Of a stretch of DNA of 64,000 nt, positions 4,269 through 29,465 are shown piece by piece. Numbering within the stretch: the stretch's first letter is position 1; every line of letters starts with the position of its first letter. The stretch is from assembly GCA_951406725.2 (NCBI GenBank), contig OX597820.1, forward strand, positions 99,386,001-99,450,000, given 5' to 3'. The notes under the pieces are model-generated. The model was not told where the DNA came from. It was given only the letters and a program-made list of their open reading frames with translations, and did not search any database. The position numbers and the translations under genes were made by a program. The stretch is from Octopus vulgaris. Lineage: Eukaryota.

Positions 4269-4379
4269 TAGAAATATTACATTTCTAAATCTCTCAGAGA
4301 GATTTATACAGTAGCTGGAAAACAAACAAAAGTATTGAAAAGAAATTGGAGGTATTTCAAAATAAATGTTTACAAAAAA

Positions 4380-20419: not shown

Positions 20420-21536
20420 TTAAGGGACATTTAGCTGTTACTTTTAGTAGGTTGAGCAAACAGCAAGGGATTCTGTGGTTATTGAAGGTAGGCAGAAAGT
20501 AAAAGAAGAGAGTAAAAAATAAAAAATAATTAAATTGTTAGGTGCCAGATGAAAAGCAAATTAATTAAGAGAGGTGTAAAATAAACTAGTGCTGAAAATT
20601 TGTTACACTTTTGAAGACAATTGAGGAAACCATTATGTGGTAGCTTGCCTTGGTAAAACTGACTATCAAATCTCTGAAATTACACTGAACAAAGGAAGAA
20701 TACATTGGATAATGGTAGCTCTAGATGTACATCTAAATAAAAGGTGGGATGGTCACAATTGGGATGCTTTTGATCATAGGCCTGCTAATGAGCAATTAAG
20801 AACATCTCTGGTGGAAGCATTTTATGCTTTACTATATTTTGACTTAATGTATACCATAGTACACAATCTCAAGATGTATTTCTGGTTTGTAAATATGAAA
20901 ACTTCACACAAGTTTGTATGATATAATTTTAATAAATTAGAAAATAAAGTTGTGTTACTCAGGTAAAAGTTTATTTCTATAGTTTGTCACTTTGAGAGTA
21001 TAGTAAAATTTTGCTGTTAAATCTTTACTTTTTAAGTATCTTCACTATCTTATACTGTTTCTGTTTCAGATTATTGGATGGTATCAACATAAACTAATGC
21101 TTTTCTTCAAAAACGCACCAACAACATTTATCATCTTTCTAAGATGTTATTCAGAAAATAAAACCTTGTTTACATAAATCTATTGTCGAACAACTGTGAA
21201 ATATTTCCTCTGGACTGAGATTAATAGCAACATTTTTCTACTTCACTGTCTGGAACTTGCACAAGGAACATGGACAAATTTACCATGAGGTTGTAATAGA
21301 ATTTTCAGTAAGAAATTTTATACCGATATATCCTCAGAAAGATTTTATTTCTTATTAGAAGACAAGTTTCTTCTAGGAATAATTATTGCAAATATGTGGT
21401 TATTACTTTGAAGTATTTAACAGATATTCACAGGGATCGTTGTTTATTGAAATATAACTGAAGAAATACTTGTTAGGTTTCAAATATTAAACCCTAACAC
21501 AAGAAATATATTTGTTATTGTATTCAACAGAAAATT

Positions 21537-22970
21537 ATGGAGAATGAATTATGTGAAAATCAAGTTAAATATAAAACACAGTGTAAAAGGATTGATTTTC
21601 CGGGTGAAAGACTGAAAGCGATACGGAAAACAACATTCTACTGTGATATGTGTAAAAAGTCTTTCTCTAAAAAAAGTAATCTAACTAGACACAAGCGTAT
21701 TCATACGGGAGAGAAACCATACCACTGTGATATTTGTGGCAAATCATTCTCTCAGAGTAGTGTTTTAAAAACTCACAAACGCATTCATACAGGAGATAAA
21801 CCATATCCCTGTGGTAAATCACTTTCTCAAAGAAGTTCTTTCACTACACACAATTATACAGGAGAGAGACCATATCACTGTGATATCTGTGGAAAATCAT
21901 TCTCTCAAGCAAATAATTTAACCACTCACAAACGTATTCATACAGGAGAGAAACCATATCACTGTGATATCTGTGGTAAATCATTCTCTATAGATAGTAA
22001 CTTAACTAATCACAAACGTATTCATACAGGAGAGAAGCCATATTACTGTGATATCTGTGATAAATCGTTCTCCATAGCTAATTACTTAACTATTCACAAG
22101 CGCATTCATTCAGGGGAGAAACCATATCAGTGCGAGATCTGTGGTAGATCATTCTCTCAAACAAATCACCTAACTACTCACATACGTGTTCATACAGGAG
22201 AGAAGCCATATCACTGTGATATCTGTGGGAAATCATTCTCTGTAGCATGTAGTTTAACCAAACACAAACGTATTCATACTGGAGAGAAACCATATCAGTG
22301 TGATATCTGTGGTAAATCATTCACTTTAAATAGTCACTTAACTACTCACAAACGTATTCATACAGGAGAGAAGCCGTACCACTGTGATATTTGTGGTAAA
22401 TCATTCTCTCAAAGTGGTGATTTAACTACACATAAACGCATTCATACAGGAGAACAGCCATATCTATGTGACATCTGTGCTAAATCCTTTTCTGATAAAG
22501 GTAGTTTAACTAGGCACAAATGTATCCATACAGGGCAAAAGCCATATAACTGTGATATCTGTGGTAAATCTTTCTCTCAAAACGGTGACTTAACTACTCA
22601 CAAACGTATTCATACAGGAGAGAAGCCATATCTTTGTGATATCTGTGGTAAATCATTCTCTGAAAAAGGTACCTTAACGAAGCACAGACGCATTCATACA
22701 GGAGAAAGACCATACCACTGTGATATCTGTGGTAAATCATTCTCTATAGATAGCCACTTAACTACTCATAAACGCATTCACACAGGAGAAAAGCCATATC
22801 ACTGTGACATCTGTGGTAAATCATTCTCTCAAAGTGGGGATTTAACCACTCACAAACGTATCCACACAGGAGATAAGCCATATCTCTGTGATATCTGTGG
22901 TAAATCATTCTCTGTGATATGTAGCTTAAATAGACACCAGTGCATTCATGCAAAACACTTCCATAAATGA
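21537..22970 (+). CDS. Tandem C2H2 zinc-finger protein, 477 aa, 15 intact plus 1 degenerate finger, no KRAB/BTB/ZAD domain
   Basis: Repeated CxxC-x12-HxxxH units with TGEKP linkers in one uninterrupted ORF. Acceptor at 21069 upstream; AATAAA at 23343 downstream. Confidence 0.96.
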
Positions 22971-27518: not shown

Positions 27519-27712
27519 CCGGAGTAAACACATAAATGTGAAACAAGGTGGGAAAAAAGAGTACTCAAATACCAGTGGTAGAGTAATATGCTTTATTTAA
27601 AGCAGCAGAAAATTCTACAAAACCTCTTACTCTGAGTTTTACGATGAACGGCAACGCGAAACTCAGAGTAACAGGTTTTGTAGAATTTTCTGCTGCTTTA
27701 AATAAAGTATAT
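27519..27712. mobile_element. (TA)n-embedded fold-back element with hammerhead-like core at the hairpin apex
   Basis: Arms 27586-27639 and 27659-27712 are near-perfect inverted repeats. The apex reads CGATGA-ACGGCAACGC-GAAA-CTCAGAG-TA. Confidence 0.7.
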
Positions 27713-27980: not shown

Positions 27981-28334
27981 GTTCCAGCTTCAGTTATGAT
28001 AGAAACCTTATCGTCTGCACTGTGTATGGAGCACTCCTTTCTCATTTGTTCAACATTAAGCAGGAAAACACACACACACACATTGTGTGTGTTTATGCCA
28101 CCTCACTTTAAACACTTTTATGTAGTCTGCTTCACTCTCCCATAATCTTTTACTCTTGAAATCCATGAACAGAGACCTTAAGACCATGCTTCAATGGAGT
28201 CAAGATAAACTTATCTCTTTCAGCAGCAGCACAAAGACTTGATTGCTACATTACCAAGGAAAAATCTTGTATTGCTCTTTCTACAGATGCTGGGCCTGAC
28301 AAATTCTCATCTCTTGAGGCAACCTTATATATAT

Positions 28335-28542
28335 AAAGTTAATCCAAACATGAAAACACAAAGAAAAAACACTACAACGTGAGGACATGGAACAAGTATA
28401 GTGTTATTGGATGCTCAGGAAAGGAAAGAAAGAAGTATTTAACGTTTTGAGCGAAGCTCTTCGTCGGAAATATAGGAAAAGGAAAGATCCAAGGAAGGGA
28501 AGACGGAGGAAAAAAAAATCGCCAACAATACACACGAGGTCA
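28335..28542 (-). mobile_element. (TA)n-flanked short PLE-type repeat with a degenerate minimal hammerhead
   Basis: Minus strand reads TATTT-CCGACGA-AGAGCTTCGCTC-AAAA-CG-TT-AAATA (28436-28472); TA runs on both sides. Confidence 0.55.
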
Positions 28543-28568
28543 TATATATATATAACATTTCTAAAACT

Positions 28569-29005
28569 AATTAGAAATATTAAATTTCTAAATGTCTCAA
28601 AGAGACGAGCGGTGGTGGGGCGATAGAGTGGTTGTATAATGTCAACATAACGTGGCAGTCCTGTCACCGCTCATGTCTCTGAGACATTTAGAAATTTAAT
28701 ATTTCTAATTACGGTGACCAGTGAATAGATTTCACTGTAAATATATATATTTGTGAAGGCCAGACAGGCACCTCAGTCAGCAGATCTCACTATCCTGGGC
28801 TGATGACGGGTTAAGACCCAGAAACATGCATGTCCTCAGGTGTGAATCTTGGCTGGTGGGGGTGCTTGCCTCCCCTTCACAAATATAAGGACACAGGAAA
28901 TGTATCAAAGCCGACAGGAAGCGTCGACGCTTCCTAGGGCTAAACAGCAGTGGTGTAATTCCCATACGGGACTGTCACGTTATGTTGACAGTATACAACC
29001 ACTCT
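28569..29005 (+). mobile_element. Retrozyme-like non-autonomous retroelement with 5' inverted segment and 12-bp TSD
   Basis: ATTTCTAAAACT duplicated at 28557-28568 and 29006-29017. 28569-28664 is an inverted copy of the element's end fused to its start. Contains a hammerhead. Confidence 0.75.
28782..28849 (+). ncRNA. Type I hammerhead ribozyme
   Basis: Stem I CCUGGG/CUCAGG, extended by AGAUCUCAC/GUGAAUCU. Core CUGAUGA (28800-28806). Stem II GGGU-UAAG-ACCC. GAAA (28821-28824). Palindromic stem III ACAUGCAUGU. Cleavage triplet GUC (28832-28834). Confidence 0.82.
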
Positions 29006-29465
29006 ATTTCTAAAACTGCATGAGAATAACTAAGAATCCTCTTTAGAGACAGGTAATACTTCAGTCTCAATCACTAAATTTCTACAAAGCTTATAGTAAG
29101 ACCAACATAAGAATATTGCTAAGATCTACGGGACAGAGATGCTGCCATACTCATTATCATCTTAGGATATATCCAAAAGACAGCAGTTTGGTTAGCAAAT
29201 ATTTAATCATGAATAAGTTTCACAAACTTGTTCTGCTTTCATTACTGTAATGACTCCTAAGTTCCTCTGAATTACCTAACTTTATATCTAGATTCACCCA
29301 TTTCTTCAATCTCTGTTATGTACACACTAAACATTTTACCCAATTCTTACACTCCAGAACAGCCGTTTTATGGATTTCCTACATCTTTCCTGTAGATATT
29401 CTATATGAACATCAACCTCACCAATATCACTAGTTTGACAGAATCTGCAAAAAATCATGGCCACT

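Follow-up and report, generated by a model that had tools for sequence, protein, structure and literature searches.

The window that we analysed, a stretch of 64,000 nucleotides from Octopus vulgaris, carries a short insertion built of two opposed arms, the parts of which are listed in Table 1 together with the related elements described below. The initial annotation had placed a 12-bp target-site duplication at its ends, and we found that the two copies are indeed an exact direct repeat. We set unit position 1 at window position 28665 and refer to the 351-nt family of the window copy as family A. Read as its reverse complement, 28569-28664 first matches 28966-29007 (3 mismatches in 42 positions), continues through an 8-nt linker and then matches 28665-28710 (3 mismatches in 46), which agrees with the three-piece reading that had been given to this 96-bp arm. 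Both arm matches were recovered by an inverted-repeat search, at 94% and 93% identity. Folding predicted two hairpins in the tail (28569..28622), and the forward arm was more stable than shuffled sequences (z -6.85; 0 of 100 shuffles were as stable). A contig spanning the right junction was present in two runs of one study, which may not be independent. Among the matches listed from sequencing-run contigs, none contained an empty-site joint across the insertion.

Table 1. Positions of the window insertion, its parts and the related elements (window coordinates, or locus and position within it)
Feature	Position	Strand	Remarks
Left target-site duplication, 12 bp	28557..28568	+	Exact direct repeat
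Inverted arm, unit 302-351 then 1-47	28568..28664	-	Outer end is the fixed 3' end 'site 2'
Penelope-type 'tail', about 53 nt, site 1 to site 2	28569..28622	-	8-nt linker and unit 1-46
Forward arm, unit 1-343	28665..29007	+	3' end is the fixed 'site 1'; 5' end is a random truncation
Long imperfect stem around the hammerhead	28746..28887	+	Arms 28746-28781 and 28852-28887; inverted-repeat search and folding
Insertion site of a LINE derivative in other copies	28773..28790	+	Empty in the window copy
Type I hammerhead motif	28794..28840	+	Read from the sequence; predicted cut after 28834
Right target-site duplication	29006..29017	+	Exact repeat; its first 2 bases are also the element end
Family B copies	L099:1437-1990; L105-L159		U3-A8 hammerhead variant
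Young autonomous Penelope-like family	L094:1244-6460; L091-L100		504-nt pseudo-LTR, U3-A8 hammerhead, many intact copies
Passenger, about 1.7 kb, ORF1-only	L191:2773-4455; L190:2775-4450; L192-L244		Target corresponds to window 28773-28790

The type I hammerhead noted earlier in the forward arm is present as a motif. Stem I is formed by 28794-28799 and 28835-28840, and is followed inwards by the core at 28800-28806, stem II at 28808-28819, GAAAC at 28821-28825 and a stem III with a palindromic loop, with GUC standing before the predicted cut. Of 34 aligned family A copies, 29 have an intact core. In the window copy, stem II has a C-A mismatch at its base, the predicted minimum-energy fold partly sequesters the core, and Rfam gave no hammerhead match either at the gathering score or at E<=10. 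Across three aligned homologous families, stems I and II vary yet stay paired, including a change from C3-G8 to U3-A8. A wider hammerhead listing took in fully paired motifs only, and it therefore gives compatibility and not a rate.

Other repeats lie near the insertion. A high-copy repeat at 28326-28545, with TA runs at its bounds and very high contig depth, directly precedes it; at locus L077, a similar copy is placed after a Penelope end. A 61-bp near-perfect inverted repeat with a 5-nt spacer, MITE-like or foldback, occupies 27586-27712. Further upstream, a 490-aa open frame with tandem C2H2 zinc fingers runs on the plus strand from 21498 to 22970. At 4269-4303 on the minus strand, a 35-nt piece of the tail end (site 2) adjoins a GAT microsatellite and is probably an extremely truncated family A copy.

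The initial annotation had called for other copies in the genome, and these were readily found. Family A is dispersed on many contigs at 91-96% identity, as seen in the best 40 of 2191 candidates scored, which do not give a copy number. We mapped 75 family A loci on a tandem ruler, dropping duplicates, and obtained 118 segments; the loci are top-scoring matches, with a bias to long, young copies, and one interrupted copy is counted as two loci, one for each half. The 351-nt unit is non-coding, with a longest stop-free stretch of 77 aa. Head-to-tail read-through of more than one unit occurs in 34 of the 118 segments (maximum 1.81 units), which directly confirms the period of about 351 nt that had been proposed for the monomer.

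The ends of these segments are highly ordered on one side and scattered on the other. At the 3' side, 103 of 118 segments stop at two fixed sites about 53 nt apart: 54 end at site 1 (unit 336-349, mode 343, which is window 29007) and 49 at site 2 (unit 39-51, mode 45, which is window 28568). At the 5' side, just 2 of 81 ends fall at unit position 1, indicating that 28665, previously taken as the start of the unit, is a chance truncation of the window copy. Among 38 inverted pairs in family A, 29 combine an arm from site 1 with an arm from site 2, in 1 both arms come from site 1, and 8 contain an unclassifiable end. In 16 of 51 loci, the insertion is flanked by an exact target duplication of 8-18 bp outside microsatellite sequence, and the rest lie mostly in microsatellites. 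The flanks past the family A ends are 84% AT.

A second family, family B, has the same organization. Its unit is 360 nt long and is 63% identical to family A over 155 nt around the tail and hammerhead. It has two ends 59 nt apart, and its segments reach 2.6 units. All 13 classifiable inverted pairs have one end of each kind (23 pairs in total, 10 unclassifiable), and the flanks past its ends are 94% AT. In addition, at least five further hammerhead repeat types, whose stems are compensated and whose core position 4 is U or C, were noted at L145, L204-L208, L219, L237, L241 and L246.

This anatomy corresponds closely to that of Penelope-like elements. In the in vitro work of Frangieh et al. (PMC11167929), AT-rich DNA was nicked and extended on both strands by a Penelope-like protein, which initiated reverse transcription at two internal positions; the distance between these equals the genomic 'tail'. 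Partial tandems, inverted arms and a tail mostly on one end have been described by Craig et al. and Schostak et al. The window copy is a Penelope-type event of this kind, with its forward arm from site 1 and its inverted arm from site 2. The initial annotation had regarded the joint between 29007 and 28665 as a preserved circular junction. This claim does not hold: 29007 is a fixed start site of reverse transcription, 28665 is a chance truncation, and the linker with the adjoining 46 nt is the Penelope tail. A circle closed by the hammerhead would instead be joined at 28834/28835 (unit 170/171), in the middle of the unit. Of the earlier interpretation, the Penelope-like insertion anatomy and copying from a circular or multimeric template are supported. 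The inversion, in contrast, probably reflects priming on both strands of the target, which accounts better than a single template switch for the finding that 29 of the 30 classifiable family A pairs have one arm from each site.

Family A shares traits with two groups of elements. As in non-LTR retrozymes, there is a hammerhead in each unit, a non-coding head-to-tail unit within 150-450 nt, no LTR, and a target duplication longer than 4 bp. As in non-autonomous Penelope-like elements, there are two fixed ends, 5' truncation, partial tandems, an inverted 5' arm and AT-rich targets. At least two consecutive complete hammerheads, by which Li et al. recognize an active element, are represented by segments that cross the cut twice or more; there are 2 such segments among 78 in family A and 14 among 65 in family B, and the window copy itself is not one of them. 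The unit has no ORF and hence lacks the RT plus GIY-YIG frame of an autonomous element. Together, a multi-copy, non-coding 351-nt unit with Penelope-like insertion anatomy agrees with the retrozyme-like reading made at the outset, and we consider it very likely that the window element is a non-LTR retrozyme mobilised by a Penelope-like element in trans.

The genome has an intact RT+GIY-YIG family with its own hammerhead and two ends about 35 nt apart, and at one locus one end was found on each arm. The ORFs of this young family, an upstream frame of about 470 aa and a 765-aa RT-GIY-YIG frame, overlap. In 44 GIY-YIG loci (from 148 matches, 6136 candidates), we found no significant match to an autonomous Penelope partner sharing sequence with family A or B. 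The only match in the partner search was a neighbouring family B copy. The tails of the GIY-YIG loci examined were about 32-35 nt, compared with 53-59 nt in families A and B.

The available accounts of Penelope-like elements with GIY-YIG (Poseidon of Anolis, PMC11167929; an overview, 10.1101/2021.04.23.441226; Penelope, PMC2377424) describe several features that family A also has, namely two internal starts, a one-ended tail, 5' truncation, partial tandems, an inverted 5'-truncated arm, AT-rich or microsatellite targets and a type I hammerhead. Unlike the elements in these accounts, family A has no ORF, families A and B have a tail of 53-59 nt rather than 30-40 nt, and the family A start sites lie 173 and 226 nt past the ribozyme cut. 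Since the anatomy is Penelope-like and since, according to Li et al. 2026, retrozymes resemble pseudo-LTRs in Xenopus, the copies might be taken for truncated terminal repeats of a long autonomous Penelope-like element, a possibility that the initial annotation had raised. We found that examined copies running past site 2 enter the unit itself or a LINE passenger and never an RT frame. Furthermore, the 30 copies fetched of 100 matches listed (172 read-through matches genome-wide) were all family A, family B or a 77% variant. These findings largely refute the terminal-repeat origin, which we regard as highly improbable.

The next question is the form of the RNA template. In the two families, the ribozyme cut is crossed 112 times (49 in family A and 63 in family B) with zero indels within 5 nt, and 16 segments cross it two or three times. 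The 5' ends did not pile up at the cut, where 1 of 118 family A segments ends as compared with 3.7 expected. A cut linear monomer cannot template these copies, because their start sites lie 173 or 226 nt beyond the cut and the copies then pass through it. Successive passes of one segment also share rare variants. Alleles confined to two passes that belong to a single tandem segment were seen in 2 of 2529 pairs in family A (0.18 expected) and 8 of 6661 in family B (0.30 expected, P 1.4e-9). For the two families together, 10 insertion-private alleles were shared by tandem passes against 0.5 expected from between-insertion pairs, a 20-fold excess. If both passes read from one circle, a template-private variant is expected in both. 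At subfamily-diagnostic sites, tandem passes agreed more often than they disagreed (110 versus 16 in family A and 61 versus 4 in family B).

A different template would be linear, namely an uncleaved read-through transcript of a tandem source. Template jumps would regenerate tandems now and then, the hammerhead would be incidental, and the copies would still be Penelope-mobilised. Penelope insertion in vitro does not require the hammerhead to cleave, and uncleaved RNA was the dominant substrate there according to Frangieh et al. (PMC11167929); Li et al. 2026 (10.64898/2026.07.22.740005) described cleavage in 1 of 9 Xenopus dimers tested. Autonomous elements without known circles form partial tandems too. 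Of the 126 diagnostic comparisons in family A, 16 are discordant, and four at unit 327 are polarised the same way, a pattern that this alternative could accommodate and that hints at some hetero-multimeric templates. A linear template would nevertheless need frequent seamless regeneration to account for the indel-free crossings and the excess of shared private alleles, and the hammerhead has been kept, with compensated stems, in several diverged families. We therefore consider a linear template unlikely, and on balance favour the retrozyme reading with a circular RNA template, which we hold less firmly than mobilisation by a Penelope-like element as such.

Changes after insertion were also considered. 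Gene conversion is common between adjacent repeats, and among neighbouring passes it could also lead to shared alleles. Together with local duplication, it might have turned monomeric insertions into tandems; divergence within insertions is indeed somewhat below that between insertions (5.9 versus 7.5% in family A and 2.9 versus 3.7% in family B). At odds with this origin, a partial tandem lies as a whole within one target duplication, with its 3' end fixed and its 5' end random, and passes in one insertion differ by 3-6%, near background age. Thus, we give very little weight to a post-insertion origin of the tandems.

For copying from a circle, we infer cleavage, circularization and the identity of the enzyme in the following scheme. 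A tandem copy would be transcribed, its hammerheads would cut at unit 170/171, and the cut monomer would be ligated into an RNA circle. A Penelope RT/GIY-YIG protein would then nick an AT-rich target on its two strands, the nicks lying 8-18 bp apart. Internal priming would take place from one nicked strand at site 1 (unit 343) and from the opposite one at site 2 (unit 45). Both cDNAs would run backwards round the circle, each for 0.1-2.6 turns. Joining of the two truncated 5' ends would produce an inverted pair with the tail on one arm and a target duplication.

Metazoan non-LTR retrozymes were defined by Cervera and de la Pena 2020 (PMC7229834), who described circles in mussel with units of 350-390 nt and proposed Penelope-like elements as the mobilisers. 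Li et al. 2026 linked retrozymes to vertebrate pseudo-LTRs; they, too, put forward Penelope-like elements as mobilisers of retrozyme circles and called the mechanism unresolved. According to these accounts, metazoan retrozymes and family A have in common a non-coding unit of about 350 nt, a type I hammerhead, head-to-tail copies and a GC content under 50%, as well as long target duplications, strong self-pairing and co-occurrence with Penelope-like elements. They differ in that the copies of families A and B are dispersed insertions of 0.1-2.6 units with mapped 3' ends, a tail and inverted pairs, whereas the retrozymes described form long arrays, and no start sites are mapped in the accounts consulted. 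Circular RNA has been demonstrated for mussel retrozymes; for family A, support for a circle is indirect and genomic. Among the sequencing runs listed as containing the element, none is on record as RNA. Contigs of two runs, whose RNA origin is a guess, cover family A but carry no weight here, since contigs cannot show strand, ends or circles. Neither 'cephalopod' nor 'octopus' occurs in the accessible text of PMC7229834, and a literature search, to which Repbase, Dfam and supplements were external, returned no paper on family A or on tail mapping in retrozymes. Family A is thus a further non-LTR retrozyme with unusually clear mechanistic footprints of the proposed Penelope mobilisation: mapped starts, one site per strand, seamless multi-turn copies and shared private alleles. 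Its 351-nt unit offers a natural template on which to test target-primed reverse transcription by the rolling-circle route and to ask what part the hammerhead plays in the biology of Penelope elements.

Some retrozyme copies carry a passenger. Two family A copies share the same 1.7-kb insert at unit 108-128, and this insert is itself multi-copy (best 40 of 310 candidates scored). It has one ORF of up to about 480 aa with a CCHC knuckle, a fixed AATAAA-type 3' end and a host duplication of 10-20 nt. We mapped 32 passenger 3' ends in the fetched loci, two of which overlap, and 22 of these ends are followed by a hammerhead core at a distance of 19-35 nt. In the whole genome, the core motif stands 15-40 nt downstream of 80 of 210 exact 16-nt passenger ends, against about 1 expected by composition arithmetic and 0 in a reversed-pattern control; the core motif is what was scored in all, and the 80 include a few identical duplicates and two that are unlike these hosts. 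This share is above the 20% by which PMC4494074 recognizes a target preference. In several retrozyme families, the insertion point of the passenger is about 20-45 nt upstream of the core. Its hosts comprise family A, the 77% variant and a number of further hammerhead families, and in family B a relative occupies the corresponding place (L138).

The passenger has entered its hosts repeatedly. If it were part of an ancestral composite unit, insert and host should have diverged together. We found that their identities are uncorrelated (Spearman -0.03; 190 pairs, 20 of 30 loci) and that further passes within one insertion often have an uninterrupted target (for example L198, L204, L219, L237, L241 and L243), and these two observations argue for repeated later insertions. 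RNA ligation at the ribozyme cut was also rejected as its origin, the junction being 45-60 nt upstream of the cut.

Relatives of the passenger, diverged and ORF1-only, stack head-to-tail with a period of about 1.8 kb (L245, L246, L247, L248-L249). One stack ends in a two-ORF LINE with APE and RT domains and a similar 3' tail; the ORF1s are 35% identical over 178 aa, and one homology match of this LINE is named Transposon TX1 protein. Its own target is not a hammerhead, so we regard it as a relative only and not as the partner of the passenger (the search took in part of the larger stacks). In a word-indexed search, the passenger ORF1 had no homolog at E<=0.001, and its Atlas feature matches, to CCHC and ZCCHC3-like clusters, are leads only. 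ORF1-only elements are termed 'half-L1' and are a near known kind. Judged by homology names rather than by a tree, the passenger would be a Tx1-like, ORF1-only LINE derivative.

Known Tx1 elements include some that have other transposons, snRNA genes or satellites as their targets (PMC4494074). The target-specific Tx1-clade LINEs described there (Tx1L, Keno, Tx1-Mar) share with the passenger a CCHC-knuckle ORF1, an AATAAA-type 3' end, a 10-20 nt duplication, array stacking and a preference for another repeat. Unlike them, the passenger targets the sequence directly before a hammerhead, and it does so in several retrozyme families that have diverged from one another. The literature searched contained no case of a LINE targeting retrozymes and, including the accessible part of PMC9004415, no link between this passenger and Tx1. 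With a LINE derivative placed beside the ribozyme, a new type of target would be added to those of sequence-specific retrotransposons. We tentatively envisage three tiers of parasites, an arrangement that is possible but that we would not yet favour: a Penelope-like RT would copy hammerhead circles by rolling-circle synthesis from two fixed sites on one circle, one for each target strand, and a Tx1-like ORF1-only LINE derivative would be specialised on the retrozymes, entering many diverged families directly before the hammerhead, with host transcription and the flanking ribozymes releasing its unit RNA. One passenger copy (L200) sits outside any retrozyme host. Its short 5' head, just upstream of 3186 on the minus strand, has what we take to be a resemblance to the start of U1 snRNA.
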